A stretch of 36,069 nucleotides of DNA from Candidatus Hermodarchaeota archaeon (GTDB lineage Archaea > Asgardarchaeota > Lokiarchaeia > Sigyniarchaeales > SOKP01), in assembly GCA_048885525.1 (NCBI GenBank), contig JBHLLP010000033.1:1-36069 (forward strand), read 5' to 3'. Numbering within the stretch: position 1 is the first letter of the stretch; each line of letters begins with the position of its first letter. Of the stretch, positions 3,824-26,281 are shown in pieces. The notes below the pieces were generated by a model. The model saw only the letters and a list, made by a program, of their open reading frames with translations. It did no database searches and was not told the origin of the DNA. Position numbers and translations under genes: made by a program.

Positions 3824-4378
3824 CTATAATGCTGAAGATAAAGCTTTATATTTAGAATAGAGTTTATTAATGATAGCATCGAAAGCATCATGAACTCCTT
3901 GCCCCGTTTTCGCTGAAGTTATGTAGTATCCGAGAAAATTTCGCTCCTTTACAAGTTCTTGAATTGAAGATTTATCTAAATTATCTTCTATGATTAAATC
4001 AACTTTATTGGCAAATAAAACTACAGGAATATCACTACAATATTTTCTCAATTCATCATGCCAATTCTTTATATGAAGAAAACTATCTTTTCCTAATTCG
4101 TTTACTTCAAGGCTAAATACAATAATAGCGGCTCTACTTTCTTTATAAAATAAAGGGTGTAGAAAATTAAAATCATCTTGACCCGCTATATCCCAAAATA
4201 TTAAATTAATTATATTTCCCTCAATTTCTTTATCATATCTTGAAAATTGAGCACCCATAGTCTTAACATAATCTTTTTCAAAAGTACCTTTTGTAAATTT
4301 TTTAATTAATGATGTTTTACCAACTCCTCCATCTCCTATTATGGAGATCTTAAATCCAAACTCTTTAGAATTAGTCAT
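3824..4378 (-). CDS. Rab/Ras-like small GTPase
   Basis: G1 GDGGVGKT, G2 Thr (YVKTMG), G3 WDIAGQ, G4 NKVD, G5 TSAK. ATG at 4378 gives 184 aa like its paralog. No C-terminal prenylation Cys. Confidence 0.93.
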   Translation of the reverse strand: MTNSKEFGFKISIIGDGGVGKTSLIKKFTKGTFEKDYVKTMGAQFSRYDKEIEGNIINLIFWDIAGQDDFNFLHPLFYKESRAAIIVFSLEVNELGKDSFLHIKNWHDELRKYCSDIPVVLFANKVDLIIEDNLDKSSIQELVKERNFLGYYITSAKTGQGVHDAFDAIINKLYSKYKALSSAL

Positions 4379-4420
4379 TAAATCCGATAATCTCAAATTA
4401 TATTATATTTTCAATGTAAA

Positions 4421-6436: not shown

Positions 6437-6644
6437 ATACTCATTTGATTTGGATTATAACTTTATGAATATAATAAGCTAATTACAATATTAAACCTAA
6501 TGCTTAATGAATCGTTTTCTTAATAAAAATCTCTTTTTTGAGAGGCTCTAAAGAAGCGCCATATTTCTTCTGAGTTTCCTTATTCTATTATTGAGAGATT
6601 TTCTTTGAAATAATTATTAAGGTTTATATAGAAAAAAAAAGAAG

Positions 6645-6727
6645 TATAGAATGGAGGAATATTGGTTTATTGTTGCATTTCATCTGGAAGTATTTACTCT
6701 AACAACCTAACTCCTCCATTTTCTATA
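6645..6727. other. Long imperfect inverted repeat (3' UTR hairpin or terminator of the 6752-7444 gene)
   Basis: tatagaatggagga (6645-6658) pairs with tcctccattttctata (6712-6727); a U-tract follows on the minus strand (6632-6640). Confidence 0.5.
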
Positions 6728-6751
6728 TTTTAATTTTAAATTAAAACAATT

Positions 6752-8073: not shown

Positions 8074-8106
8074 TTTTTTATCAACTCTTTTTTTTAAAGA
8101 TCGGTT

Positions 8107-8206
8107 TTATCACCAATTTAGTGATCAATTATATCTTGAGACTCAGTTTCCTTTATAATTGGGCTTCCGATAGTTCCGTGATAGTTCCAATATAATATGG
8201 AAGTTC
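8107..8206. promoter_or_regulatory. Divergent promoter region with GATAGTTCC direct repeats (candidate operator) and leader hairpin
   Basis: GATAGTTCC at 8169-8177 and 8180-8188 (11-bp period); ATCAC-N7-GTGAT at 8109-8125; lies between divergent genes 8073(-) and 8277(+). Confidence 0.55.
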
Positions 8207-8276
8207 TATGAAATAAATATAAATAGAAAAGAAACCGATCTATAATTTAGAAAAAAAATTTAGTTTTCAAATCATC

Positions 8277-10175
8277 ATGGGTATCATAAATTATCCCCCA
8301 GAAAAGATTTATAGCCCTTCCAAGTTGAAGAGACCGGATTATGACCATATTATTCTCTGGATGTTGAATAATAATAATACATGCAAATGGGCGGATTTTC
8401 ATCGAGAACCAATTGAAATTCCTACGGGTACATTATCTAGACATTTAGACACATTAAAACGTAAGGGTTTTGTAGAAAATTTTACTAGAGGGCATTACAG
8501 AATTACTTCAGAGGGAAAAAAGAAATTTCATGAGTTATCATCATCTAAAAAGAAAAAACGCAGACTAAACTATCCTCCCGAAATAATATTAAGAAGTGGA
8601 AGGAATTACTCTCACTGGATTCTGTGGATGATTTATAATAATAATTACTGTAAAAGAACTGATTTCCTTAAAAAACCATTGTCTATAAATCAAACTTCAT
8701 TATCAAAAAATTTGAACTTATTAATTGAAAAGGGATTTGCATCAAAAGAAGATGGAAAATATCTAATTACCCAAGCAGGGAAATCTGAATACTCAAGGAT
8801 GTTAAAAAACTATGATTTGGATAGGCAAACTATTTTGGAAGAGGAAAGTAAACGAATTGAAGAGATTACTAAAAAAACACTTCAATTTTTTGAGATTTAT
8901 AATATTAAAGATGAAAATATACAATATAGGTTTCTAAATAATATACTAAGATTAGACTATGAAAAAGTAAAACCTATATTAAAAGATGAGGAAATCTTTC
9001 ATAAAATCATACTTTTCCTTTCGATTAATCATCCGGATCAATATCCAAACCTTATATCCTCTGAAGATTTTTCTAAAATTTATAAAATTAAGAAAACTAC
9101 GCTTGATTATTACATTGATGAGATCTCAGATGGTAAAATATATCCATTAAGATTTTTTAAGTTAAGGCAACCATCAGGCGAACAATATTACTTTCAATCA
9201 GATGGAACGCTAGAAAAAATGCTTCGAATAATCACCGAGAATAAAATCACTAAAGTTTCTTATTTAAATAAGCTTTTTTCTAAAAAAGTTATGTTAGATA
9301 TGGAATCCACAATAAATGATATTGCTAACAAGAGTTGTAAATTCTTATTTAATAAAAAATTGAAAGAATCTCTCAGAGAGTTTTTGCCGGAATATATTAA
9401 ATATTTAGCTTATAAAATTGAGACTAAGAAGAAATTAAAAGAGACTTATGATAAATTAGAGGGAGTTATTTGGCAGAATATAACAGATGCTTTTCAATCA
9501 AAAATCTCTGAAAATTTAGTTGATAAATATGAAGAACAAATAAAAGAGATTGAAAAAGAAATTGAAATAAAACCTAAGAATCTCAACTTATATTATTCGA
9601 AGATTAGAGTTCTGATTTACTTTAACCAATACAAAGATACAATAAATTTTTTAGAGGAAATGTTAGAAATTTTTCCTGAAAGTGAGAAGGATATTAAGGT
9701 ATTAAAAGCAGCCGTTCTTAGAAGAATGCAAAATGTTGAAGCAGGATTAGAAATCATTGAGTCTTTAATTGAAAAGTACCCTAAAGTCCATGATCTCCTT
9801 AGTTATAAAGCCTATTGGCTACAGTTTTTGGATAAAAAACAGCAAGCATTAGAAATAATTCAAAATCTTATAGAAATTGAACCTGAGGCGGGAATTTATT
9901 ATGACACATATGGTGAGATTTTAATGTATTTTGAAGATTATGAAGAAGCTGCTAAAAAATTTGTAAAGTCAATGGTTTTAGGAGCCCATGAATGGTATAT
10001 TTTTCAGACTTATATCAAATTAGGAATTTGTTATAAAGCTATTGGAAATATTGATTTAGCAGTTGAAAATCTCAATAAAGGAATAGAACTTACAGAGAAA
10101 AAAGTAAAAGATTCTGAAACAAAAGAAAAATGGCTTTCCATTGCTAATCTTTTTCTTTCAGAACTTAAGCCATAG
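8277..10175 (+). CDS. Tandem winged-HTH + C-terminal TPR putative transcription regulator (paralog 1)
   Basis: Two internal repeats NYPP...ILWM..NN...LS..L..L...G......Y.IT..G (wHTH), a possible third HTH (EDFSKIYKIKKTTLDYYIDEI), and C-terminal TPRs (YYDTYGEILM, TYIKLGICY). Confidence 0.8.
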   Translation: MGIINYPPEKIYSPSKLKRPDYDHIILWMLNNNNTCKWADFHREPIEIPTGTLSRHLDTLKRKGFVENFTRGHYRITSEGKKKFHELSSSKKKKRRLNYPPEIILRSGRNYSHWILWMIYNNNYCKRTDFLKKPLSINQTSLSKNLNLLIEKGFASKEDGKYLITQAGKSEYSRMLKNYDLDRQTILEEESKRIEEITKKTLQFFEIYNIKDENIQYRFLNNILRLDYEKVKPILKDEEIFHKIILFLSINHPDQYPNLISSEDFSKIYKIKKTTLDYYIDEISDGKIYPLRFFKLRQPSGEQYYFQSDGTLEKMLRIITENKITKVSYLNKLFSKKVMLDMESTINDIANKSCKFLFNKKLKESLREFLPEYIKYLAYKIETKKKLKETYDKLEGVIWQNITDAFQSKISENLVDKYEEQIKEIEKEIEIKPKNLNLYYSKIRVLIYFNQYKDTINFLEEMLEIFPESEKDIKVLKAAVLRRMQNVEAGLEIIESLIEKYPKVHDLLSYKAYWLQFLDKKQQALEIIQNLIEIEPEAGIYYDTYGEILMYFEDYEEAAKKFVKSMVLGAHEWYIFQTYIKLGICYKAIGNIDLAVENLNKGIELTEKKVKDSETKEKWLSIANLFLSELKP

Positions 10176-12616: not shown

Positions 12617-12697
12617 TTAATAATTTTGATAAACTTGACAATATCCATTGTTATAGACTTTTACTCGTTGTTTTTCAGCAACGTCCATTTTTTTCAT
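12617..12697 (-). CDS. Unannotated 26-aa peptide MKKMDVAEKQRVKVYNNGYCQVYQNY
   Basis: Strong SD GGAGGTGAT (12713-12705) 7 nt before the ATG, own TATA box (12765-12771), U-rich terminator-like tract after the stop (12597-12613), upstream region homologous to that of 23283-23357. Confidence 0.75.
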   Translation of the reverse strand: MKKMDVAEKQRVKVYNNGYCQVYQNY

Positions 12698-12804
12698 TTT
12701 TTTTATCACCTCCATTTTGTATTGTTTTTTATTTTTTTCTTAATTTTAATATGGATAAGCTTCGTTATATAGTTTTTATTGCGGAACTTTTCGCGAAGTT
12801 CGAA
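12698..12804 (-). promoter_or_regulatory. Peptide-gene leader, BRE/TATA and palindromic operator GAACTT-N6-AAGTTC
   Basis: Minus strand AAAAACTATATAA; palindrome at 12784-12801; ungapped alignment to 23358-23464, and its last 44 nt align to 24273-24316. Confidence 0.75.
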
Positions 12805-12899
12805 TATGAGAAAAGGTTTATGAACAAAACCAAAATTAAGGTGAAAAAACAGATTAGGATTAGAAATTACATCAATTATAATTCTCAGTTATATTTCGT

Positions 12900-14855
12900 T
12901 TAATTTAACCGAATTGTTTTTTCAGCAAATATTTCATTTATCAATGGTTCTAGGGAAGGGATATCTTTTAATTGTACTAATCGGCTTGTTTGGTTGTATT
13001 CATTGAACGTCTTCCATATGGTTGCATCCTGTTTAACATTATCAATGAATTTTGCTACTCTTTGCTGCGCGAGATATGATTGTCCCTTGAATAAATAGCA
13101 TACAAGGAAAGGATGCAAAGAATTCATAATAATTGTATACTCCCCAAAATTCGCCCTGTTGAGACCCTCAGAGAACATTTGATCACTAAAGGAATTTATA
13201 GCTGTTAGAAAACCTCCAAAAAGATGATCCTCGAAAGCCCATTCTTCCGCAAAGGAATTAGAGAATAGGGGCCTACCACCCTCTGAAATAATCAATAGTA
13301 CGATAGGTTCCTCATCAGTAAGCTCAGGAACAATAATTTCTCGTTTTCGGATCATCCTTTCCATCTGTTCATTTGGACTTGCTAACTCCAAGCGTTCATA
13401 TAATGGTGCTTTAGATTCTTTTAATTTGTTCCACACATCTAATTGTTTAAGTAATTCATCATGCTCATTCGATATCTTTATTGCTAACCGATTGAGACCA
13501 TAATTATCTGCTATTTCTTGAGCCTTAATTAATAACTGCCGAGCTTTTTTTATATCCAACGTAATTAAGGATAATCTTGCTTGGAGCAAATATGTTTCAG
13601 CTAATAGAGAATAAGAACGCGAATTTTTAACGGTGTCAAATAATTGAGAAATATAAACTTGCAATTCATCCAGTATTTCAGGTTCGTTAGTTGCATATAA
13701 CTCAAATAGGAGCAAATCGCACAAGTTCAGGAGAGCCATTTTTAAACTTTCAAAGTCAGAGATTTCTTCTTCAATCAACTGTTTTAACATCTCTTCAGCT
13801 TTCCCACGATTAACAGCGCGGGGGCTAGATTTCAGGTATATAGCTCTATCAATGTTATATAGTATATTATAATAATTGGATTGATTCTTTTCTTGATCAG
13901 AAATTTGCTTCATTCGATTTAACCATCGCTGTGCCTGTTCAAGATCGTTCATATCAAGAGCTAATTGAAACAAACTATCAGTAAAGGCAAATTTCTGAAT
14001 AATTGTACCATATTCTTCTGCAATAGTTATACTTTTTTTCAAAAACTTTAAGGCATTGTCGTAATCGCCTTTTTCATGGTATGTCATTCCAATGCTATTA
14101 TATATTGGTGATAATAATTCTAATTTGTTTTCTTTCTCTGTAAATGATAGGATTTGTTCGTAATAACTAAGAGCCTTATCTAATTCACCTTTGAGCGTAT
14201 AAATCATTCCAAATTGCAAATTGCAATAGTGAAAAATATCTATTAAGTCAAGTTTATTGCAATGATTTTTACATGATTTAATATATTCTAAAGCACAGTT
14301 TAAGTTTCCAATTTTCCAGGAAATCACTCCAAGTTGGTAATGCATAAGAGCAATATCTACTTTTAGATTGAGATCTTCTAGGATTACTAGAGATTCCTCC
14401 CTAAATTCTTTAGCTTTTTCCAGATCTCCTTTCTGCTCATGATAAGCGCCTTTGTTCCATAATATATATGCTTTTCTTTTTTTGAGTTCTGTGGATAATT
14501 CTTGAGGGAGTATCTTCAGTAGATCTTCACTCTTTTTGATAAAGCCAGCTGCTTCATTTGTCTTATAAGACCAATTTGATATAGCTCCCATAAGAATATA
14601 GACATCAAGCAATAAAATGGAATTTTCAAGCTTTTGGCTTTCACGATAAGCTTTTTCGGTATATTTTGTACATTCATTTCTATCTTGAAAATAAAAGGCG
14701 ACAAAACCTTTTAGACAATAATAAGCTATCCGCTCACGATAAGAGAGATCTTTTTTGTTTTTAAAATCATTGAGTATTTGAAGAGCTTCTTCGATTTTAC
14801 CTGCTTCAATAAGCTTTTCTGCTTGACCTAATTCCTTATGTATTAAATGAGCCAT
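12900..14855 (-). CDS. TPR-longin protein, array copy 5
   Basis: TPR repeats plus longin-like tail LLIISEGGRPLFS...HLFGGFLTAINSFSDQMF. Confidence 0.82.
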   Translation of the reverse strand: MAHLIHKELGQAEKLIEAGKIEEALQILNDFKNKKDLSYRERIAYYCLKGFVAFYFQDRNECTKYTEKAYRESQKLENSILLLDVYILMGAISNWSYKTNEAAGFIKKSEDLLKILPQELSTELKKRKAYILWNKGAYHEQKGDLEKAKEFREESLVILEDLNLKVDIALMHYQLGVISWKIGNLNCALEYIKSCKNHCNKLDLIDIFHYCNLQFGMIYTLKGELDKALSYYEQILSFTEKENKLELLSPIYNSIGMTYHEKGDYDNALKFLKKSITIAEEYGTIIQKFAFTDSLFQLALDMNDLEQAQRWLNRMKQISDQEKNQSNYYNILYNIDRAIYLKSSPRAVNRGKAEEMLKQLIEEEISDFESLKMALLNLCDLLLFELYATNEPEILDELQVYISQLFDTVKNSRSYSLLAETYLLQARLSLITLDIKKARQLLIKAQEIADNYGLNRLAIKISNEHDELLKQLDVWNKLKESKAPLYERLELASPNEQMERMIRKREIIVPELTDEEPIVLLIISEGGRPLFSNSFAEEWAFEDHLFGGFLTAINSFSDQMFSEGLNRANFGEYTIIMNSLHPFLVCYLFKGQSYLAQQRVAKFIDNVKQDATIWKTFNEYNQTSRLVQLKDIPSLEPLINEIFAEKTIRLN

Positions 14856-14971
14856 AATTTTCTCAGATATTATAGGTTTGAATAGCTTGGATTATAACTT
14901 TTCAGATACAAGTTATATAGTAAGAAAATTACCATTTTAAATGTAATTACAATACCAATAAAAAATCGAAT

Positions 14972-16924
14972 TTACGCAATCAGGGGGACACTTTTATCTA
15001 TAAAGATTTTAGTTATCAATGGTTCAAGGGAAGGAACATCTTTTAATTGAACTAATCGGCTTGTTTTATTATAATCATTAAACATCTTCCATATGTTAGC
15101 ATCCTCTTTAACATGATCAATGAATTTTGCCACTCTTTGCTGTGCAAGATATGATTGACCCTTAAATAAATAACATACGAGGAATGGTTCGAGAGGATTC
15201 ATAATAATAGTATACTCTCCAAAATTAGCCCTATTGAGCCCCTCAGAGAACATCTGATCACTAAAGGAATTTATAGCGGTTAAAAAACCTCCAAAAAGAT
15301 GATCTTCGAAAGCCCATTCTTCTGCAAATGATTTAGAGAATAGAGGCCTTCCACCCTCCGAAATAATTAAAAGTACTATAGGATCTTCATCAGTAAGCTC
15401 AGGAACAACTATTTCTCGTTTTCGGATCATTTTCTCCATCTGTTCATTAAGTTGTGCTAACTTCAAGCGTTCAGCTAAAGATGCTTCTGATTCTTTTAAT
15501 TTGTCCCACACATCTAATTGTTTAAGTAATTCATCGTGCTCATTCGAAATTTTCATGGCTATTAAATTAAGACCGTATTTTTCGGCAACTTCCTGAGCTT
15601 GTGTCAAAAACCGCCGAGCTTCGTTCGTATCAAAAGTTATTAATGCTACTTTGGCTTGTAATAGGTAGGTTTCAGCGAGATACCAAAACGAGTTTGTTTT
15701 CTCAGTTAATTCTAATAAACGATTTAGATTGGTTTTAATCTCTTCTAGCACTTCAGCATCGTTAGTTATGCGTAATTCAACCAATAATAAATCACAAAGC
15801 TCTATTAATGCTTCAATTTTTGAAATAACTCCTTCTTCTTCAATAATTTCTCTCAATATTTCTTCTGCTTTGACCCGGTTTTTAGCTCTTGTGCTTGTTT
15901 TCAGTAGGATGGCGCTACTCAAACGAAAACATGAATTAATCCATTTACTTTCCTCTTGTTCGTTGAGCTGCTTTAAGCGGTTAAAGTGTTTTTGAGCTAA
16001 TTCAAGATCGCCCATTTCGACTGCTGCACCAATCAAATTAGTAAGAGTTGTAGATGTGTGTAAATTAATCCCGAGTTCCTCTCTTATTGTTAGACCTCGC
16101 TCTAGATGCCCTAAAGCACGAATAAAGTCACCCTTTCCTCTATAGATATTCCCAATTTGGGTATGTGCAGCTGCGATCATCTGTTTATTATTAATCTTTT
16201 CGTGTAATTTTAAACCTTGCTCTGCATATATGAGACTTCGATCTAATTCACCTTTATTCAAATGAACAAGCATTAACCATAGCAAGTTTTGAGCTATAAA
16301 ATACTTGCTATTACTTTCCTCTGCTAATAATAAACTTCGCTTTAGATATTTAATGGCATGATTCAATTCACCTTTTTGTCCAAAAAGAATATGAGCGATC
16401 CAATAAAGGGATTCAGCAATCATAACTTTATTGTCTAATTTCTCTCCCAATTCTAAACTCTGTTCTAAGAACTTTAGTTGATTATCCATTATTTGAATGA
16501 ATATACCTTTAACTAAAAAAATGTGAGCTTCTCGTTTCATGATGTCTTCTGGTAATTCTCGGGTAAATTTTTTTAATAATTCTTCGGCTTGGTTAATTAC
16601 ATTAATAGCTTCCTCTTCTCTATCAAGAAATTTTAAAGCCTTCGCGCTGAGTATTAAGGCGTCAACTGATTGGAGATTTTTTCCCAACTCTAAACTCTCT
16701 TTATATGTTTGATCTGCTATTTTAAGCATTTCCTCAAATTTCCATTGCCAATATAAAAGGTTGCACTTGAGGAGCCGAAATGATACTTTATCCTGAAGCA
16801 TGAGGCCCTTCATTTGCTCGAAACTGTCAATGAGTTGGAGGGCTTCATCATACTTGCCTTCATCAATGAGTTTTTTTGCTTGAACAAGCTCCTTAGATTC
16901 ATCACTGGACATATTTTCATCCAT
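14972..16924 (-). CDS. TPR-longin protein, array copy 4
   Basis: Same architecture; ELRITND subtype. Confidence 0.82.
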   Translation of the reverse strand: MDENMSSDESKELVQAKKLIDEGKYDEALQLIDSFEQMKGLMLQDKVSFRLLKCNLLYWQWKFEEMLKIADQTYKESLELGKNLQSVDALILSAKALKFLDREEEAINVINQAEELLKKFTRELPEDIMKREAHIFLVKGIFIQIMDNQLKFLEQSLELGEKLDNKVMIAESLYWIAHILFGQKGELNHAIKYLKRSLLLAEESNSKYFIAQNLLWLMLVHLNKGELDRSLIYAEQGLKLHEKINNKQMIAAAHTQIGNIYRGKGDFIRALGHLERGLTIREELGINLHTSTTLTNLIGAAVEMGDLELAQKHFNRLKQLNEQEESKWINSCFRLSSAILLKTSTRAKNRVKAEEILREIIEEEGVISKIEALIELCDLLLVELRITNDAEVLEEIKTNLNRLLELTEKTNSFWYLAETYLLQAKVALITFDTNEARRFLTQAQEVAEKYGLNLIAMKISNEHDELLKQLDVWDKLKESEASLAERLKLAQLNEQMEKMIRKREIVVPELTDEDPIVLLIISEGGRPLFSKSFAEEWAFEDHLFGGFLTAINSFSDQMFSEGLNRANFGEYTIIMNPLEPFLVCYLFKGQSYLAQQRVAKFIDHVKEDANIWKMFNDYNKTSRLVQLKDVPSLEPLITKIFIDKSVPLIA

Positions 16925-17023
16925 ATTTTTAGAAAAAATTGGATTCTAATTTTCAATATACAAGTTATATATTAAGTTATTTATCATTTTAAATGTACTT
17001 AAATTATCAATAAAAATTCGAGT

Positions 17024-19000
17024 CTACGCAATCAGGGGGACGCTTTTATCTATAAAGATTTCATTTATCAAGGGTTTGAGGGAAGGAATATCCTTTAATT
17101 GTACCAATCGGCTTGCTTGATTAAATTTATTAAAAATATTCCAAATTTCTGCATCCTCTTTAACCTTATCTATGAATTGTGCTACTCTTTGCTGCGCGAG
17201 ATATGATTGTCCCTTAAATAAATAACATACGAGGAAGGGATGGAGAGAATTCATAATAATGGTATACTCCCCAAAATTAGCCCTGTTTAGCCCCTCAGAG
17301 AACATCTGATCACTAAAAGAATTGATAGCAGTTAAAAATCCACCAAAAAGATGATCCTCAAAAGCCCATTCCTCAGCAAACGATTCAGAGAATACAGGTC
17401 TTCCACCCTCGGAGATAATCAGAAGAACGATAGGTTCTTCATCAGTAAGCTCAGGAACATCTATTTCTTGTTTTCGGATCATTCTTTCCATCTGTTCATT
17501 TAGATGTGCTAGCTTCATGCGTTCTGACAAAGATGATTCTGATTCTTTAATTTTGTTCCATTCATCTAATCGCTTAAGTAATTCATCGTGTTCATTCGAA
17601 ATTTTGATTGCTAATCGATTAAGACCATATTTTTCTGCTATTTCTTGAGCCTTAGTTAGAAAATATCGAGCTTTTATCAAATCCAACGTTAATAACGCCA
17701 ATTTAGCTTTTAAAAAGTATGTTTCAGCTAATAAAAAATAGGAATTCATCCGTTCAGATTCGTCTAATAAACGAGCGATAATAGATTCGATCTCTTCTAA
17801 AACTTCTAAATCATTGGTTATACGTAATTCGACTAATAATAAATCACATAATTCTAGCATTGGGGCCGCCGAATAAATATTTCCTTCGTCTAAAAGCTCT
17901 TTTAAGATTTCTTCTGCTTGGACTCGATTTTTAGCTCGAGGGCTGGCCTTCAAAATCAAAGCTTTATAATAAAGATGCATCATATTAACATATTCGTCCC
18001 TCAATTGATTGTTTAAACGCTCAATTTGATCAAGATGTTTCTGTGCTGACTCAAGATCGCCCTTATCAATTAAAATTTGAATTAAAACCCCGCGGGCTTT
18101 AGCACTATCTTTTAACATTTCCAACTCAGAATATAATGCTAATCCTCGCTCAGCGTAGTCTAACGCGCGATTATATTCTCCTTTCATTCTATACGTATTT
18201 CCTAGAGAGCAGCACCCTACTGCTATTTCGGATTTATTATTGAGCTCCTTGAAAATCGCTAAACTTTGTTCATAATATTTAATACTCAGATCAAGTTCAC
18301 CCCTAAGGAAATACACTGCATAGATATAGGTTAAACCAAATGCAATTATATATTTATTTTTAAGCTCTTTTTTCTTAACTAGAGCCAGAAATCGCTCGAT
18401 ATACTTTAAAGCATCATTTGTTTCACCCTTTATACGACCTAAGTTATAAATTATTTCCATAAGTGATATAGCGATTTCCTCTTTATCCCCAACCTCTTCT
18501 TGCAATGCTAAACTCTGATAAAGTTGATCTAAAACAAAATTTACATCCCCATTTCGATTAAAGTATTTATTATTAGAAAATGCTTTAACATAAATTATTC
18601 GTGCCTTTCTTTTCTTGTAATCTTTTGGTAATTCTTTAGTTAGGGTTTTCAGTAGTTTTTCTGCCTGCTTAATTGTATCAGAAACTTCCTCTTTTCTATA
18701 AAGAAATACTAAACCTAAAGCCTTAAAACATAAAGCATCAATAGACAGAAGATGTTTACCTAATACTAAACTCTCTCCATACGTTTGTTCAGTAAATTTG
18801 ACAAGATCTTCATATTGCCCTTGTTGGAATAAAAGCTCGCATTTGAGGAGATGACATGACACAATCTCATGAAGATTGCGTTCACCTGTTTCCTCAAATT
18901 TATTCATTAATTGGATCGCTTTTTCGCTCTTTCCCTTGTCTATGAGTTGTTTTACAAGAATTAATTCCTTCGGTTCTAAATAAGTAATATGATTTTCCAT
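17024..19000 (-). CDS. TPR-longin protein, array copy 3
   Basis: Same architecture; ELRITND subtype. Confidence 0.82.
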   Translation of the reverse strand: MENHITYLEPKELILVKQLIDKGKSEKAIQLMNKFEETGERNLHEIVSCHLLKCELLFQQGQYEDLVKFTEQTYGESLVLGKHLLSIDALCFKALGLVFLYRKEEVSDTIKQAEKLLKTLTKELPKDYKKRKARIIYVKAFSNNKYFNRNGDVNFVLDQLYQSLALQEEVGDKEEIAISLMEIIYNLGRIKGETNDALKYIERFLALVKKKELKNKYIIAFGLTYIYAVYFLRGELDLSIKYYEQSLAIFKELNNKSEIAVGCCSLGNTYRMKGEYNRALDYAERGLALYSELEMLKDSAKARGVLIQILIDKGDLESAQKHLDQIERLNNQLRDEYVNMMHLYYKALILKASPRAKNRVQAEEILKELLDEGNIYSAAPMLELCDLLLVELRITNDLEVLEEIESIIARLLDESERMNSYFLLAETYFLKAKLALLTLDLIKARYFLTKAQEIAEKYGLNRLAIKISNEHDELLKRLDEWNKIKESESSLSERMKLAHLNEQMERMIRKQEIDVPELTDEEPIVLLIISEGGRPVFSESFAEEWAFEDHLFGGFLTAINSFSDQMFSEGLNRANFGEYTIIMNSLHPFLVCYLFKGQSYLAQQRVAQFIDKVKEDAEIWNIFNKFNQASRLVQLKDIPSLKPLINEIFIDKSVPLIA

Positions 19001-19099
19001 AGATTATCAGTTTAAGAATATGGATTATAACGGTTTGAATACAATTATATTATTAAGAAAATTGAAATTTTAAATGTAATTAAACTCTCAACTAAAAAA

Positions 19100-21052
19100 C
19101 TAAGCAATAAGGGGGACGCTTTTATCAATAAAAATCTCATTTATCAATGGTTCAAGAGAAGGAATATCTTTTAATTGTACTAATCGGCTTGCTAGATTAA
19201 AATCATTAAATGTCTTCCATATGACAGCATCCTCTTTAACCTTATCAATGAATTTTGCTACTCTTTGCTGTGCGAGATATGATTGTCCCTTAAATAAATA
19301 ACATGCGAGGAATGGTTCGAGAGAATTCATAATAATGGTATATTCACCAAAATTCGCCCTGTTGAGCCCCTCAGAGAACATCTCACCACTAAAGGAATTG
19401 ATGGCAGTTAAAAAACCACCAAAAAGATGATCTTCGAACGCCCATTCTTCCGCAAAGGATTTAGAGAATACGGGTCTACCACCCTGTGAAATAATCAATA
19501 ATACGATAGGTTCCTCATCAGTAAGCTCAGGAACAATAATTTCTCGTTTTCGGATCATCCTTTCCATCTGTTCATTTGGACTTGCTAACTCCAAGCGTTC
19601 AGATAATGGTGCTTTAGATTCTTTTAATTTGTTCCACACATCTAATTGTTTAAGTAATTCATCGTGCTCATTTGATATCTTTATTGCTAACCGATTGAGA
19701 CCATATTTATCTGCTATTTCCTGAGCCTTAATTAACAACTGCCGAGCTTTTTTCATATCCAAGGTAATTAAGGATAATCTTGCTTGGAGTAAATATGTTT
19801 CAGCTAATAGGGAATAAGAACGGGAGTTTTTGACGGTGTCAAACAATTGAGAAATATAAACTTGCAATTCATCTAGTATTTCTGGTTGCCCAGTCGCATG
19901 TAATTCAAATAAGAGCAAATCACATAAGTTAAGGAGAGCTATTTTTAATAATTCATAATCGGAAATTCCTTCTTCAATTAATTGTTTCAACATCTCTTCA
20001 GCCTTACCCCGATTGAGAGCTCGAGGGCTATATTTCTGGAAAATTGCTCTATCTACGTTATATACTATATTAAGTCCTCTTGAATTTTCTCGATCAGCGA
20101 TTTGCTTAATTCGATTCAAGTATTTTTGTGCTTTTTCAAGATCGTTCATATCAAGAGCTAAGTGAAACAAACTATCAGATCTGTAAATTGTATGATACTC
20201 TTCCTTAATAGTTATACTTTTTTCCAGATTTTCTAATGCTCGGCTGAAATCTCCTTTTTCTTGATAAATCATTCCAATATTATTGTACATCGTTGTAATT
20301 AATACTAAATCATTTTCTTTTTCTGCAAATGCTAGTGCTTTTTCATAATAACTAAGAGCTCGATCTAGTTCACCCTTCATACTGTAAATAATTCCAAATT
20401 GATTATAACAACTGTGAATAAGGTTTATTAAGTTGAGATTATTAGCAAGAATTTTACAGGATTCAATAATTTCTAGAGCATGGTTTAAGTCTCCAATAAG
20501 CCAAAAAACCCGCCCAAGTTGAAAAAGAGTCAGAGCAATGTCCGCTTTATGATTGAGTTTTTCTCGTATTACTAGAGATTCCTCCGCACATTCTTTTGCT
20601 TTTTCCAATTCTCCTTTCAGCTGGCATTTAAAGCCTTTTAGCCACAATAGAAAAGCTTTTTTTTTTGTCAGTTCTGTGGATAATTCTTGAGGGAGTATCT
20701 TTAGTATGTCTTCACACTTTTTGATAAATTCATATGCTTCATTCGTCTTATAATGCCAGAGTAAATTATTTGCCATTTGAAGATAGACATCAAGCAATAG
20801 AAGGGAATTTTCAAGCTTTTGACTTTCACGATAAGCCTTTTCGGCATATTTTGCTATTTCATTTCTATCAAAAAAATAATTGGCGAGGCTACTTTTAAGT
20901 GTATAATAATAAATTCGCTCAAAGTAAGGAAGATCTTTTTTCTCTCCAAAAGTATTCACTAATTGGAGTGCATTTTCGATTTTACCTTCATTAATAAGCT
21001 TTTCTGCCTGAATAAGCTCCTTAGGTTCTGAATAAACCATATGTTTTTCCAT
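19100..21052 (-). CDS. TPR-longin protein, array copy 2
   Basis: Same architecture; first 91 aa differ from copy 1 at only 3 positions. Confidence 0.82.
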   Translation of the reverse strand: MEKHMVYSEPKELIQAEKLINEGKIENALQLVNTFGEKKDLPYFERIYYYTLKSSLANYFFDRNEIAKYAEKAYRESQKLENSLLLLDVYLQMANNLLWHYKTNEAYEFIKKCEDILKILPQELSTELTKKKAFLLWLKGFKCQLKGELEKAKECAEESLVIREKLNHKADIALTLFQLGRVFWLIGDLNHALEIIESCKILANNLNLINLIHSCYNQFGIIYSMKGELDRALSYYEKALAFAEKENDLVLITTMYNNIGMIYQEKGDFSRALENLEKSITIKEEYHTIYRSDSLFHLALDMNDLEKAQKYLNRIKQIADRENSRGLNIVYNVDRAIFQKYSPRALNRGKAEEMLKQLIEEGISDYELLKIALLNLCDLLLFELHATGQPEILDELQVYISQLFDTVKNSRSYSLLAETYLLQARLSLITLDMKKARQLLIKAQEIADKYGLNRLAIKISNEHDELLKQLDVWNKLKESKAPLSERLELASPNEQMERMIRKREIIVPELTDEEPIVLLIISQGGRPVFSKSFAEEWAFEDHLFGGFLTAINSFSGEMFSEGLNRANFGEYTIIMNSLEPFLACYLFKGQSYLAQQRVAKFIDKVKEDAVIWKTFNDFNLASRLVQLKDIPSLEPLINEIFIDKSVPLIA

Positions 21053-21154
21053 AAATTATCGGTTAAAAATTTGGATTATAACTTTTCAGATACAAAGAAT
21101 ATATTAAGAAAATTACCATTTTAAATGTAATTTTCTAACAATCTAAATTCGAAC

Positions 21155-23122
21155 CTACGCAATTAGGGGGATACTTTTATCTACAAAGATTTTTGTTATT
21201 AATGGTTCGAGCGAAGGGATATCTTCTAATTGTACTAATCGGCTTGTTTGGTTGTATTCATTAAACGTCTTCCATATGATTGCATCCTCTTTAACATTCT
21301 CAATGAACTTTGCTACTCTTTGCTGTGCGAGATATGATTGTCCCTTAAATAAATAACACACAAGGAAAGGATGGAGCGAATTCATTATGATAGTATACTC
21401 CCCAAAATTAGCTCTGTTGAGCCCCTCAGAGAACATCTCATCGCTAAAGGAATTTATCGCGGTTAAAAAACCACTAAAAAGATGATCTTCGAACGCCCAT
21501 TCTTCTGCAAATGATTCAGAGAATATAGGCCTTCCACCTTCTGAAATAATTAATAATACGATAGGCTCCTCATCCGTAAGCTCAGGAACAATAATTTCTC
21601 GTTTTCGGATCATCCTTTCCATCTGTTCATTTGGGCGCGCTAACTTCATACGTTCAGATAAAGATGCTTTAGATTCTTTTAATTTGTTCCATACATCTAA
21701 TTGTTTAAGTAAATCATCGTGCTCATTCGATATTTTTATTGCTAAACGATTAAGGCCATATCTATCTGCTATTTCCTGAGCCTTAATTAACAACTGCCGA
21801 GTTTTTTTCATATCCAACGTGATTAATGATAATCTCGCTTGGAGTAAATATGTTTCAGCTAGTAAAGAATAAGAACGAGAACTTTTAACAGTGTTAAATA
21901 ATTGGGAAATATAAATTTGTAGTTCATCTAATACTTCTGGATCATTAGAAGCATGTAATTCATAAAGGAGCAAATCGCATAAGTTAAGGAGAGCAATTTT
22001 TGAAGATTCGTAGTCAGAAATTCCCTCTTCAATTAATTGTTTTAAGATCTCTTCAGCTTTACCCCGATTAAGAGCTCGAGAACTAGTTTTCAGATAAATG
22101 GCTCTATCAATGCTATATGGTAGATTATAATAATTTGTTTGATACTTCTCTTGATCTGCAATTTGCCTCATTTGATTTAAGTATCGCTGGGCTTGTTCAA
22201 GATCGTTCATATCAATAGTTAAATGAAATATTGTATCCGAAACAGTAAATATTTCATAATTCGTACCATATTCTTGTTTAATAGCTATACTTTTTTCTAA
22301 ATTTTCTAATGCACAGTTAAAGTCTCCTTTTTCTTGATAGATCATTCCAATATTGTTATAAATACTTGAAATAAAGGTCATATTATTTTCTTTTTTTGCA
22401 AATGGTAATGCTTTTTCAAAATAACTAAGAGCCCGATCTAATTCACCTTTCATAGAGTAAATACACCCAATTTGATTATAACAACGGTGAAGTAGATGTT
22501 TTAAGTTAAGATTATTAGCAAGAGTTTTTGATGATTCAGAATATTCTAAGGCATTTAAGTCTCCAGTTATCCATGAAAACCATCCCAGTTGATAAAGAAT
22601 TAAAGCTATATCTGTTTTAATATTAAGTTCTTCTAGTAATACAAGAGTTTCTTTCCAAAATTCTATAGCTCTTTCCAGTTCTCCTGTTTGTCGAAGGTCC
22701 TCGCCTTTTAACCATAATATATATGCCTTTCTTCTAGTGAGTTCTGTAGATAATTCTTGAGGGAGTTTCTTCAATAGGTTTTCACTATTTTTAATAAATT
22801 CAAATGCTTTCTTTCTCTTAGAATGTAAGAATAAATTAATTGCCATTAGAAGATAAACATCTAGCAAGAGTAGGGAATTTTCAAGCTTTTGACTTTCATG
22901 ATAAGCCTTTTCGGCATATTTTGCCATTTCATTTCTATCAAAAAAATAATTGGCGAGTCTACTTTTAAGTGTATAATAATATATTCGCTCAAAGTAAGGA
23001 AGATCTTTTTTCTCTCCAAAAGTATTCACTAATTGGAGTGCATTTTCGATTTTACCTTCATTAATAAGTTTTTCTGCCTGAATAAGCTCCTTAGGTTCTG
23101 AATAAACCATATGTTTTTCCAT
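21155..23122 (-). CDS. TPR-longin protein, array copy 1
   Basis: Same architecture. Confidence 0.82.
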   Translation of the reverse strand: MEKHMVYSEPKELIQAEKLINEGKIENALQLVNTFGEKKDLPYFERIYYYTLKSRLANYFFDRNEMAKYAEKAYHESQKLENSLLLLDVYLLMAINLFLHSKRKKAFEFIKNSENLLKKLPQELSTELTRRKAYILWLKGEDLRQTGELERAIEFWKETLVLLEELNIKTDIALILYQLGWFSWITGDLNALEYSESSKTLANNLNLKHLLHRCYNQIGCIYSMKGELDRALSYFEKALPFAKKENNMTFISSIYNNIGMIYQEKGDFNCALENLEKSIAIKQEYGTNYEIFTVSDTIFHLTIDMNDLEQAQRYLNQMRQIADQEKYQTNYYNLPYSIDRAIYLKTSSRALNRGKAEEILKQLIEEGISDYESSKIALLNLCDLLLYELHASNDPEVLDELQIYISQLFNTVKSSRSYSLLAETYLLQARLSLITLDMKKTRQLLIKAQEIADRYGLNRLAIKISNEHDDLLKQLDVWNKLKESKASLSERMKLARPNEQMERMIRKREIIVPELTDEEPIVLLIISEGGRPIFSESFAEEWAFEDHLFSGFLTAINSFSDEMFSEGLNRANFGEYTIIMNSLHPFLVCYLFKGQSYLAQQRVAKFIENVKEDAIIWKTFNEYNQTSRLVQLEDIPSLEPLITKIFVDKSIPLIA

Positions 23123-23282
23123 AAATTATCGGTTTAAATACTTGGATTATAACTTTTCAGATACAAGTTATATAATAAGATATTTGCCATTTTAAATATA
23201 ATTAAAACGTGATGTATTTTAAGATATTAAAATTCAGAGAGAAAAAGAATAAAAAATAAAAAAATAAAAAAAATAAGTTATA

Positions 23283-23357
23283 TTATTTAGTAATTGTTGG
23301 GATAATAGGAAATCCAGCACTTTTTACGAATATTGCCTTGCTTGCTTTTCTTTTCAT
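23283..23357 (-). CDS. Unannotated 24-aa peptide MKRKASKAIFVKSAGFPIIPTITK
   Basis: SD-like AGTGAT 7 nt before the ATG, same spacing as the 12697 peptide; homologous promoter; long U-rich tract after the stop (~23242-23275). Confidence 0.7.
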   Translation of the reverse strand: MKRKASKAIFVKSAGFPIIPTITK

Positions 23358-23464
23358 TTTTTTTATCACTTTTTTTTGTTTTATTATTTTGTTTTTTTCT
23401 TAATTTTAATATTGAAATACTTCGTTATATAGTTTTTACCGCAGAACTCTATTCGAAGTTCGAA
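23358..23464 (-). promoter_or_regulatory. Peptide-gene leader, BRE/TATA and operator, copy 2
   Basis: GAACTC-tattcg-AAGTTC at 23444-23461; colinear with 12698-12804. Confidence 0.75.
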
Positions 23465-23614
23465 CATTTATCAAGATAAGAAAACTAGTAAAAAAATTTA
23501 AGAATTAAACTCTCAAAAAAGAATAAAAGACTGTTTAAAAAAGAATAAGATAAAAATTAAAAAAAGAATAAGAAAAGAAACTATTTATACATAAATAGTT
23601 GGGATGTTCATAAA

Positions 23615-24214
23615 TTAATTTAAAAACTTTGATTTCTGGATAAATAAAATATTGGATTTAACGTTAGATTCTTTCAATTTCTTCGATATCTCAACAAAAG
23701 TATTTTCTTCACCAAAATGAACAAAAGTTATTCCTTTATCTTCGCGACCTTTTAAAATCTCTAGAATTCTTTTAGTAATAGCATCCGTTCGTACACGATT
23801 ATTGATGTAATGCTTTAAATCTTTTAATTCATCTGAGTAATCATAAATTAAATAACCTAGCTCTTTAGCAGTTGGAGAATTTTTATCTTCTAATGAATTA
23901 TATGTAGCTTTTAACTCAGAAAGTCTCTCCTGAAGTTCAGTTATTTGACTTGAGAAGTAATCCTTTACATAATGAGGTGATTCAACTGTGAAATAAGGGA
24001 TCTCAAATTGTTTCAACACTTCTGCCAAATAAGTATTATTGAAGTCTCTTAGATTTATACTACCCAAATCAATTGTTGCGAAATGTATAGGAAGATTCCT
24101 TATCTTTTCAACAACATCCTCAATATCTTCTTGTGTAACTTCACCATTTAAATCTCTTATTAAATATCCAGAGAAATCTATATCAGCCAATAATTCAAAC
24201 ATTATACTTGCCAT
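23615..24214 (-). CDS. Hypothetical alpha/beta protein, possibly degenerate TraB/PrgY/GumN (TIKI/EreA-like) fold
   Basis: Start moved to ATG 24214 (MASIMF; SD-like AGTGAA), since the 24277 ATG lies only just 3' of the TATA box, probably upstream of the transcription start. EDIEDVVEKIRNLPIHFATIDL, YLAEVLKQFEIPYFTVES and RTDAITKRILEIL...TFVHFGEEN...LKE resemble TraB/GumN blocks by eye. CDS is confident, family is tentative. Confidence 0.6.
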   Translation of the reverse strand: MASIMFELLADIDFSGYLIRDLNGEVTQEDIEDVVEKIRNLPIHFATIDLGSINLRDFNNTYLAEVLKQFEIPYFTVESPHYVKDYFSSQITELQERLSELKATYNSLEDKNSPTAKELGYLIYDYSDELKDLKHYINNRVRTDAITKRILEILKGREDKGITFVHFGEENTFVEISKKLKESNVKSNILFIQKSKFLN

Positions 24215-24272
24215 TTTATTTTCACTTTTTTTTATTTTGTTTGTTTTTTTTATAATTATATTATAAGATAAG

Positions 24273-24340
24273 TTCATTATATAGTTTTAAATATGAAACT
24301 TCATACGAAGTTCGAACTTAAAAAAAAGTTTATATAGAAT
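24273..24340. promoter_or_regulatory. Back-to-back promoters with operator copy 3 (AAACTT-N6-AAGTTC, plus perfect AAGTTCGAACTT)
   Basis: 44-nt ungapped alignment to the two peptide promoters. Minus-strand TATA at ~24278-24283 and plus-strand AAAAAAGTTTATATA at ~24322-24336 ahead of the regulator. Confidence 0.75.
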
Positions 24341-24385: not shown

Positions 24386-26281
24386 ATGAGTATTGTAAAT
24401 TATCCTCCTAAAGAGATTTATAAAGCACCTAAATATGGAAAGAAGAATTTTGAGCATATAATTCTTTGGATGCTAGCAAATAATGATGAATGTCAATGGT
24501 CAGACTTTACACAGGATCCTTTAGGATTTAGTACTTCAACTCTATCTAAATATTTCAATTTATTAAAGAGTAGGGGATATGTTGATAATTATTCTCGAGG
24601 TTATTATAAGATAACACTTGAAGGGGAAAAGAGATTTAATGATTTATCTAGAACCCGTGGTGAGAAAAGAAGATTAAGCTATCCTCCTGAAGTAATTTTA
24701 AGGAGGAGAAATTATGATGATTGGATTCTATGGATGGTTTATAATAATACATTTTTGAAATGGTCTGATTTTCTTGCTGAACCTCTTAGCATTAACCAAT
24801 CATCCCTATCAAAGAATATGAATCTTTTGATAAATAAGGAGTATGTACTAAAAGAGAATAAAGAGTACCGAATTACCCGTTCAGGCAAAATAGAGTATTC
24901 AAGAATGCTACAGAATTATGACTTAGATAGACAATCAATTTTAGATGAGGAGAGTAAGAGAATTGAAGAGATTACCAAAAAAACCATAGAATTCTTTGAC
25001 ACTTACGATATTAGGGATGAAGATATTCAATTTAGGTATCTCAATAACGTTATAAGGTTAGATTATGCCAGAGTTAAAGCTATGTTAACAGAAGAGGAGG
25101 ATTTTGAAAAAATCTTACTTTTTCTTTCAATGAATCATCCAAACCAATATCCAAACTATATTTCTATGGAAGATTTTTCAAAGACCTATAGAATAAAGGA
25201 GTCAAAATTGGAGTATTATATTGATGAGATCGTTGAGAATCAGATATATCCAATAAAATTTTTCAAATTAAAGCTTCCTCCGAATGAAGTATATTACTTC
25301 CAGGAAAATGAAAGAGTAGAGATTATGCTTCGGGCTATAACAGAAGATCATATAACTAAATTTACTTACTTAAGTAAGTTATTTTCAAGATCATTAGATT
25401 TACGTACTACCATTGATAATATATTAGATGATATTTGTGGGTTATTATTTAATGAATGTTTTAAAGAGTCTTTAAGTGAGTTTCTACATGATTATATTAG
25501 TTACTTAGCATATAAGATTGAAGCGAAAGAAGAATTAAAAGAAACATTAGATAAACTAGAAGGAATAATCTGGCAGGATATGATGGAATTATTTCAATCA
25601 CTGAGTACTGGGGATTTGAAAGACCAATTTGAAGAACAGATTAAAGAGATAGATAAGGAAATCAAATCTGATCCGGATAATATCGATTTATACAATTCAA
25701 AAATCTCAATTTTACTCTACTATGAACAATTAGAAGATGTATTGAAATTATTAAATGAAATGCTAGAGAAATTCGAAGAGAATGAAATTGGTATTAAGAT
25801 GAAAAAAGCATCAGTTCTTAGAAGAATGCGAGATGTACAGAGTGGTTTAGATATTATCAATGAATTAATCAAGAAATATCCTGAAAATAATGATCTACTT
25901 AATTTTAAAGTCTATTGGTTACAATATTTAAATAGAAGAGAAGAAGCATTGAAAATAATTGAAGATCTCATTGCTAACGTTCCTGATAATGGAACGTATC
26001 ATGATACATATGGAGAACTCCTAATGTATTATGAAGAATATAAACAAGCTACAGAAAGATTCTTAAAAGCAATTGAAATAGCTGGTGATGAGTGGTATAT
26101 TAATCAAACATATATTAAGCTAGGAATCTGCTATAAAGAACTTAAAAACTTCGATTTAGCGCTTCAAAATCTTAAAAAAGGTAAAGAGTTAACAAACAAA
26201 AGCTCAGGAGATGCAGAGACTAGACAAAAATGGCTTACAATCGCTGACCTTTTTCTATTAGAAATAGAACAAATGCTTTAA
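24386..26281 (+). CDS. Tandem winged-HTH + TPR putative transcription regulator (paralog 2)
   Basis: Full-length paralog of 8277-10175 (shared PLSINQ.SLSKN, NYDLDRQ.IL.EESKRIEEITKKT, TYIKLGICYK). Confidence 0.8.
   Translation: MSIVNYPPKEIYKAPKYGKKNFEHIILWMLANNDECQWSDFTQDPLGFSTSTLSKYFNLLKSRGYVDNYSRGYYKITLEGEKRFNDLSRTRGEKRRLSYPPEVILRRRNYDDWILWMVYNNTFLKWSDFLAEPLSINQSSLSKNMNLLINKEYVLKENKEYRITRSGKIEYSRMLQNYDLDRQSILDEESKRIEEITKKTIEFFDTYDIRDEDIQFRYLNNVIRLDYARVKAMLTEEEDFEKILLFLSMNHPNQYPNYISMEDFSKTYRIKESKLEYYIDEIVENQIYPIKFFKLKLPPNEVYYFQENERVEIMLRAITEDHITKFTYLSKLFSRSLDLRTTIDNILDDICGLLFNECFKESLSEFLHDYISYLAYKIEAKEELKETLDKLEGIIWQDMMELFQSLSTGDLKDQFEEQIKEIDKEIKSDPDNIDLYNSKISILLYYEQLEDVLKLLNEMLEKFEENEIGIKMKKASVLRRMRDVQSGLDIINELIKKYPENNDLLNFKVYWLQYLNRREEALKIIEDLIANVPDNGTYHDTYGELLMYYEEYKQATERFLKAIEIAGDEWYINQTYIKLGICYKELKNFDLALQNLKKGKELTNKSSGDAETRQKWLTIADLFLLEIEQML

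Follow-up and report, generated by a model that had tools for sequence, protein, structure and literature searches.

Does a control region that recurs in front of different tiny open reading frames mark a family of genes, and if so, what do these genes do? The question is raised by positions 23,283 to 23,464 of a 36,069-nt contig (C33; hereafter the window) from a 3.58-Mb, 29.4% G+C assembly of a Candidatus Hermodarchaeota archaeon. The window encodes Ras-family GTPases, a SET-domain protein, TPR-RING proteins, and five tandem TPR proteins of ~650 residues. An earlier note, made from the letters of the window, recognised here a second small-peptide gene sharing promoter and leader with a gene at 12.7 kb, and took the divergent peptide behind a conserved control region for a diversifying signal or ligand. 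Our analysis bears out the gene: judged by sequence, the tiny frame, never called by gene finders, very probably represents a genuine gene whose product is a small basic protein. The reading as a signal fared less well.

As the host is an archaeon, the rules for BRE/TATA promoters and oligo-T terminators apply, and a scan for sigma-70 promoters and hairpin terminators was set aside as inapplicable. The frame at 23357..23283 lies behind a control cassette of ~115 nt in which a palindromic operator stands 11 nt upstream of a BRE/TATA promoter (Table 1). Its translation was identical to the 24-residue product given in the note, with a net charge of +6 and hydrophobic runs of at most four residues. 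A TPR-longin gene at 23122 lies 160 nt further downstream on the same strand. Because the unit ends at oligo-T runs, it would probably yield a transcript of its own, ~150 nt long.

Table 1. Features of the 23-kb unit, its sister unit, and the neighbouring genes. Positions refer to the window.
Feature	Position	Strand	Basis
Whole control cassette: operator, promoter, and A-rich leader of ~45 nt to the ATG	23352..23467	-	nhmmer profile match, E 1e-23
18-bp palindromic operator GAACTT-N6-(A/G)AGTTC	23444..23461	-	11 of 12 half-site positions matched in the 23-kb copy
BRE-like purine run and TATA box (CTATATAA at 23432-23425)	23425..23439	-	Read from sequence
Shine-Dalgarno-like GTGAT, followed by an A7 spacer and the ATG of the 24-codon micro-ORF	23365..23369	-	Read from sequence
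24-codon micro-protein gene, type B, including the TAA stop	23283..23357	-	Translation, family alignment, pN/pS
Oligo-T runs directly 3' of the micro-ORF stop, likely archaeal terminator	23238..23276	-	Read from sequence
Sister unit: cassette and 26-codon micro-ORF (type A; 12697..12617)	12617..12811	-	Profile match, translation
Third copy of the cassette (24207-24323) with the gene that it drives, for a 199-aa protein without known family	23615..24323	-	Profile match
631-aa winged-helix-TPR regulator gene, directed away from the cassette at 24207-24323	24386..26281	+	Pfam HTH_34/HTH_45 and TPR

The control regions of the two peptide genes aligned without a gap, as had been claimed: 23348-23467 matched 12688-12807 over 120 nt with 80% identity (repeat family D20), or 83% by BLAST, with an E value of 2.8e-27 against the whole 3.58-Mb genome. 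The similarity ended ~7 nt past the shared ATG, so that the coding sequences part right after the start. Together, the two micro-ORFs flank the array of five TPR genes (12900..23122), again as described. The sister micro-ORF lies upstream of a Ras-like GTPase gene, and its type A counterparts in relatives have 26 codons in four cases and 23 in one further form.

Where three promoter copies had been counted in the genome, we found four clear ones and a diverged fifth. The 11-mer TTCGAACTTCG occurs just four times in the genome, at 23464, 12804, and 24316 (-) of the window and at 19851 of contig C25, each time within a cassette copy. Using a profile built from the four copies, the fifth was detected on contig C10 (57083-56978; nhmmer E value 4e-6), where it drives an 89-aa protein; the C25 copy drives a 23-codon ORF. 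The 199-aa protein behind the third copy in the window starts at the ATG at 24214, not 24277, because the Shine-Dalgarno (SD) motif and spacer line up there. A Pfam search with this protein gave nothing above noise, and its assignment as TraB/PrgY-like was rejected, the Pfam matches at E ≤ 5 being noise only. The gap at 6437-6751 of the window (module 'b') held no cassette-type micro-ORF. Directly upstream of the C25 cassette lies a frameshifted fragment of the C-terminal tail of a TPR-longin gene (L003:1044-1406; ~19200-19755 of C25 in this genome, G000), which points to a segmental duplication in which the 3' end of the gene was copied to an unrelated locus along with the cassette.

The operator was then compared across 62 copies from many genomes. 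Its half-sites were nearly invariant, the 6-nt spacer varied freely, and the distance from operator start to TATA box was 29 nt in 53 of the 57 copies with a located TATA box. This combination argues for the site of a dimeric protein just upstream of the BRE, and not for plain shared descent. A strict operator pattern, run over 61 genomes of the order, gave counts similar to those of a reversed-pattern control and missed the 23-kb copy, which has a GAGTTC half-site; it detected operators next to regulator genes of two other genera (G099, G093, G103).

To describe the family, we collected cassette copies from relatives. The cassette was present in 24 of 24 genus members in a first draw by DNA searches, and in 31 of 54 genus genomes, this one counted, by a stricter DNA search. 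From 81 non-redundant copies, 46 distinct micro-ORFs of 18-32 codons, with a peak at 23-28, were obtained, the census being a sample of fetched loci in which the ATGs of relatives were called automatically. The earlier note had reasoned that further copies of a peptide-gene promoter should have micro-ORFs behind them. Indeed, most did, and those that did not drive proteins of 62-261 aa. Winged-helix-TPR (wHTH-TPR) regulators of two further genera likewise had cassettes with micro-ORFs beside them. A collection of 15 billion predicted proteins contained none of the seven peptides that were compared with it.

The 24-codon micro-ORF falls into type B, the largest group, with 17 members of 23-25 codons from 15 genomes that have a common start context and stop position. 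Their products share a basic M-K-[RK]-K start, an I/V run, a [KR]-N-x-G-[FY] element, and a basic C-terminal residue. The closest ortholog (L036:1607-1678:+ in G021; 78% identity over 227 nt) lies directly between a regulator gene and a TPR-longin-like gene. Against this ortholog the control region was better kept than the peptide, as had been supposed: 79% for the cassette, 69% for the ORF, and 11 of 24 residues for the peptide. The possibility that the frame is the decayed 5' end of a longer gene fails, since none of the 16 relatives, all from the same genus, has a longer gene at the counterpart site; all have frames of 23-25 codons. The weak pattern noticed between the two peptides of the window proved real at the level of the family, where [VIL]-x3-G-[FY] occurs at residues 9-14 in 22 of the 46 distinct peptides versus 0.9 ± 0.9 in shuffled ones; it is confined to types A, B, and C and absent from the others. 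By these comparisons, the 24-codon gene belongs to a family of micro-proteins of 23-28 residues that is found in one Loki-type genus and has relatives in at least two neighbouring genera. Descent of the micro-ORFs from the N-terminal strand and P-loop of Ras-like GTPases, suggested by a likeness seen by eye, was rejected: a type-B profile run against 4231 genome ORFs of at least 60 aa matched no Ras protein and gave nothing below E 0.08.

The relatives also contain other products behind the cassette. In five loci (L075, L116, L117, L084, L073), a separate type of micro-protein, 22-28 aa long, ends in [FL]-G-x-K-D-L with almost no variation; its genes usually come first after the regulator, before a second micro-ORF cassette. 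Many TPR domains recognise such an invariant free C-terminus. In L041 and L120, the product behind the cassette is a zinc-ribbon-like protein of 83 aa that has two CxxC pairs and is encoded between the regulator gene and a type-B micro-ORF. Finally, in two genomes (L124:3474-3620 in G086; L046:1514-1700 in G023), operator and TATA box are followed by a conserved G-rich stretch instead of a micro-ORF. In one genome this stretch can be read as an open frame; in the other the frame closes after three codons. A non-coding RNA or some other product may be made from it.

Several lines of evidence bear on whether the frames are translated. Among type-B members, pN/pS was 0.56 for all pairs together and 0.45 for the close ones, versus 0.81 and 0.82 in the shifted frames; these pairwise values come from short alignments of related sequences. 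In 4 of the 17 members, the start is fixed by an in-frame stop that precedes the ATG by 2-5 codons. Across the 46 distinct micro-ORFs, which comprise 1141 codons, 157 stops fell in frame +1 and 85 in frame +2. At the given base composition, a frame would remain open over at least 22 codons with a probability of 0.11 per sequence, and several mutually unalignable types all stay open. An SD-like motif precedes 43 of the 46 micro-ORFs, in most cases ending 7-9 nt before the ATG, and a run of at least five T lies within 16 nt of the stop in 40. The features by which small ORFs are recognised, an SD motif with a start codon, a frame kept in relatives, and frame-specific constraint, were thus all found. 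Taken together, the sequence data suggest that 23357..23283 is probably a real, translated 24-codon gene of type B encoding a small cationic protein, probably a cytosolic one.

The 23-kb copy itself is the most diverged member of type B. Over the 72 nt compared with the G021 ortholog, pS was 0.29 and pN 0.33 (pN/pS ~1.1), so that purifying selection is not visible in this pair; the copy may be under recently relaxed or diversifying selection, which are indistinguishable over 72 nt. This ratio, the several conserved type-B residues that are missing (~11 of 24 consensus positions matched, as counted on the alignment), and an SD motif, GTGAT, that is weaker than the GAGGT of most copies would all fit a decaying or non-functional duplicate of the cassette with a leftover open frame. 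We regard such a leftover as highly improbable, because G000 and G021 both keep frame, length, stop, the V-K-x-A-G-F core, and the terminator through ~23 substitutions without an indel, and the GTGAT-A7 leader is equally kept in G021 and G001. A regulatory role of translation in cis is very unlikely as well. By that account the micro-ORF would be a leader peptide or uORF whose translation controls terminator read-through into the TPR-longin gene at 23122. The position of the unit ahead of that gene, the terminator right after the stop, and the Ras, TPR-RING, or TPR-longin gene that follows on the same strand in many relatives agree with this account; the next gene is, however, convergent in type-B loci L066, L070, L087, and L112. 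Moreover, all five genes of the array have a 67-nt upstream element of their own, four of them with no micro-ORF ahead. The peptide is conserved along its whole length and is not enriched in one codon type, and no alternative RNA fold stands out, the predicted transcript folding no better than its shuffles (z -0.8). That the transcript is a small regulatory RNA with an incidental frame is extremely improbable. It would be short and independently terminated, with a conserved 5' part, as such RNAs are, but the conserved part is promoter and operator DNA, a search against Rfam matched no family, the fold is not significant, and the constraint is specific to one frame, the only one from which stops are absent.

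The 67-nt elements (23141-23207, 21070-21136, 19019-19085, 16938-17004, and 14886-14952; repeat family D19) are 73-91% identical to one another, and each is probably the promoter and leader of its own TPR-longin gene. Elsewhere in the window, 300 nt at 1853-2152 resemble the 3' part of the Ras-like gene at 3824-4396 (73% identity) and contain no long ORF; this stretch is probably a fragment of a GTPase gene.

If the micro-ORF is a gene, what controls it? About 25 of the 46 micro-ORFs stand head-to-head with a wHTH-TPR gene, whose start lies ~160 nt upstream of the peptide ATG. In the window, the 24-codon micro-ORF and the regulator gene are separated by the 199-aa gene, while in G021 they are directly adjacent. 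An AF2 model of the 631-aa regulator (pLDDT 82) has winged helices at residues ~20-90 and 108-178 and helical repeats from 310 to 630. The regulator has more than 1200 homologs, all from Asgard archaea (labelled Promethearchaeota, Lokiarchaeota, and other Asgard groups) and none of them characterised; eight matches lie in this genome, at least one of them a fragment. Variant operators go with particular regulators: a clade of 840-aa regulators accompanies AAACTAC..GAAGT sites and ORFs of 83-89 aa, and the second paralog in the window (8277-10175) accompanies GGAACTA repeats that are conserved in another genus. In the intergenic region of this second paralog (8074-8276), two GGAACTATC repeats and a TATA box come after a GAACTT site, an arrangement kept in another genus (L132, L133, L144). 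The head-to-head company, the pairing of operator variants with paralogs, and the co-occurrence in further genera suggest that the 631-aa regulator is likely the operator-binding protein. As a dimer it would bind the palindrome and control both divergent promoters. The micro-proteins, the 199-aa protein, and the other small proteins would then form one regulon.

Ten type-B genes are exceptions to this company. These genes, of a subtype marked by '..GFAFQ..' (including L034, L064, L070, L096, and L100), occupy a conserved orphan site, present in about ten genomes, beside a YbaK/prolyl-tRNA-editing-like gene with no wHTH-TPR gene nearby, and several are followed by a convergent gene; this genome contains no copy of the subtype. 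Such sites indicate that the micro-ORF is a gene in its own right and that any control there would be in trans. In general, the genes downstream on the peptide strand encode Ras-like GTPases, TPR-RING, or TPR-longin proteins in varying order. As a working guess, the micro-proteins are outputs of the regulon that act somewhere on the TPR/GTPase modules; action on the modules that usually follow them would be the more tentative step.

The layout also invites comparison with RRNPP signalling, in which the micro-protein, or a processed piece of it, would be the ligand of the TPR domains of the neighbouring wHTH-TPR or TPR-longin protein and would act back on the operator of its own gene, possibly from cell to cell. 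We consider this rather unlikely. What speaks for it is a layout like that of Rgg/SHP, with a DNA-binding TPR protein, a head-to-head gene of 23-28 codons, and an operator between both, together with a peptide whose sequence diverges more quickly than the control region and a motif that spans three peptide types far above expectation. However, the peptides are hydrophilic, with mostly negative GRAVY, net charges of 0 to +7, and hydrophobic runs that never exceed four residues, and thus carry no known export signal or signal peptide; export by some other route is conceivable. The regulator is 62-86% identical among the homologs listed, while the peptide types cannot be aligned with one another. 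In a tree of 24 regulators the peptide types are scattered, with no co-diversification of receptor and peptide; sister regulators (support 100/99) stand beside a type A gene in G001 and a type B gene in G021. A single peptide type precedes different TPR or GTPase genes in different genomes. The earlier note proposed a test for co-variation with neighbouring TPR alleles; peptide type did not follow regulator phylogeny and had no fixed downstream TPR partner. The regulator matched no RRNPP family in Pfam at E ≤ 0.01, and its 50 best Foldseek matches in the PDB were generic TPR proteins (OGT, MamA, APC/C subunits). Complex prediction with the peptide and residues 180-631 of the regulator gave a score of 0.01, against a mark of 0.32, for a peptide chain lengthened by six codons of leader to the 30 residues required, which is not the natural product; this score counts neither for nor against an interaction. 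Of the proposed diversifying signal or ligand, the divergent peptide under conserved control stands; the step to a diversifying signal or ligand is not supported, given the missing export signal and the missing pairing with the regulator.

For a broader function, one can imagine a peptide circuit of Loki-type Asgard archaea, and here we go well beyond the data. It is doubtful, though conceivable, that dozens of micro-proteins of 23-28 residues, all under one wHTH-TPR regulator family and a shared operator, are ligands of the variable TPR heads of TPR-longin and TPR-RING proteins and so set the state of the neighbouring Ras/Rab-like GTPases. If true, the circuit would be a prokaryotic forerunner of the way in which TPR adaptors of eukaryotic trafficking and ubiquitin pathways recognise peptide motifs. 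It is for eukaryote-like machinery that Asgard genomes are searched, and genes of fewer than 30 codons escape standard annotation; the common control cassette makes a whole family of such genes visible, in the very loci in which genes for Ras-like GTPases, TPR-longin proteins, and TPR-RING proteins are clustered. With its 18-bp palindrome, fixed TATA distance, and conserved family of candidate regulators, the cassette defines a precise, testable regulon. In any case, the micro-ORFs provide a clean set of conserved archaeal micro-proteins for study.

Three known systems invite comparison. Small ORF-encoded proteins of archaea have been studied, for example, in Haloferax and Methanosarcina. Like the Asgard micro-ORFs, they come from independent genes of fewer than 30-50 codons that have their own promoter and SD motif, are missed by annotation, and are conserved in relatives. 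The Asgard case differs in that dozens of unrelated micro-ORFs stand behind one operator-promoter-leader cassette, and within loci for Ras-like GTPases, TPR-longin, and TPR-RING proteins. The leader-peptide attenuators (trp, his, pheM) likewise combine a tiny ORF, a T-rich terminator that follows at once, and a co-oriented downstream gene, but the Asgard unit has no alternative hairpins, its peptide sequence is itself conserved, and the next gene is convergent in several loci.

The third comparison is with RRNPP pairs. Our search of the full-text literature returned no paper that links Asgard archaea to RRNPP and none on micro-protein cassettes of this kind. Rgg/SHP and ComR/ComS of streptococci and AimR/AimP of SPbeta phages share with the Asgard unit a cytosolic protein with DNA-binding and TPR domains, a peptide gene of ~20-30 codons beside the receptor gene and often divergent from it, and a palindromic site in the common intergenic region. 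The Asgard unit differs in its archaeal BRE/TATA promoter and in its regulator, which has two or three winged helices in 631 aa, where RRNPP receptors have an XRE-type HTH in ~285 aa, and in which Pfam and Foldseek found no sequence or specific fold likeness to Rap, Rgg, NprR, PlcR, PrgX, or AimR. It further differs in its hydrophilic, cationic peptides without export signal and in combining one conserved regulator with many unrelated peptide types. A TPR and DNA-binding protein and an adjoining peptide gene are thus common to both; receptor homology, export signal, and co-diversification are features of RRNPP that were not found in the Asgard unit. By analogy, then, these are operator-controlled small-peptide genes beside a putative DNA-binding TPR protein, and their closest counterparts in layout are the RRNPP pairs of the Rgg/SHP type.
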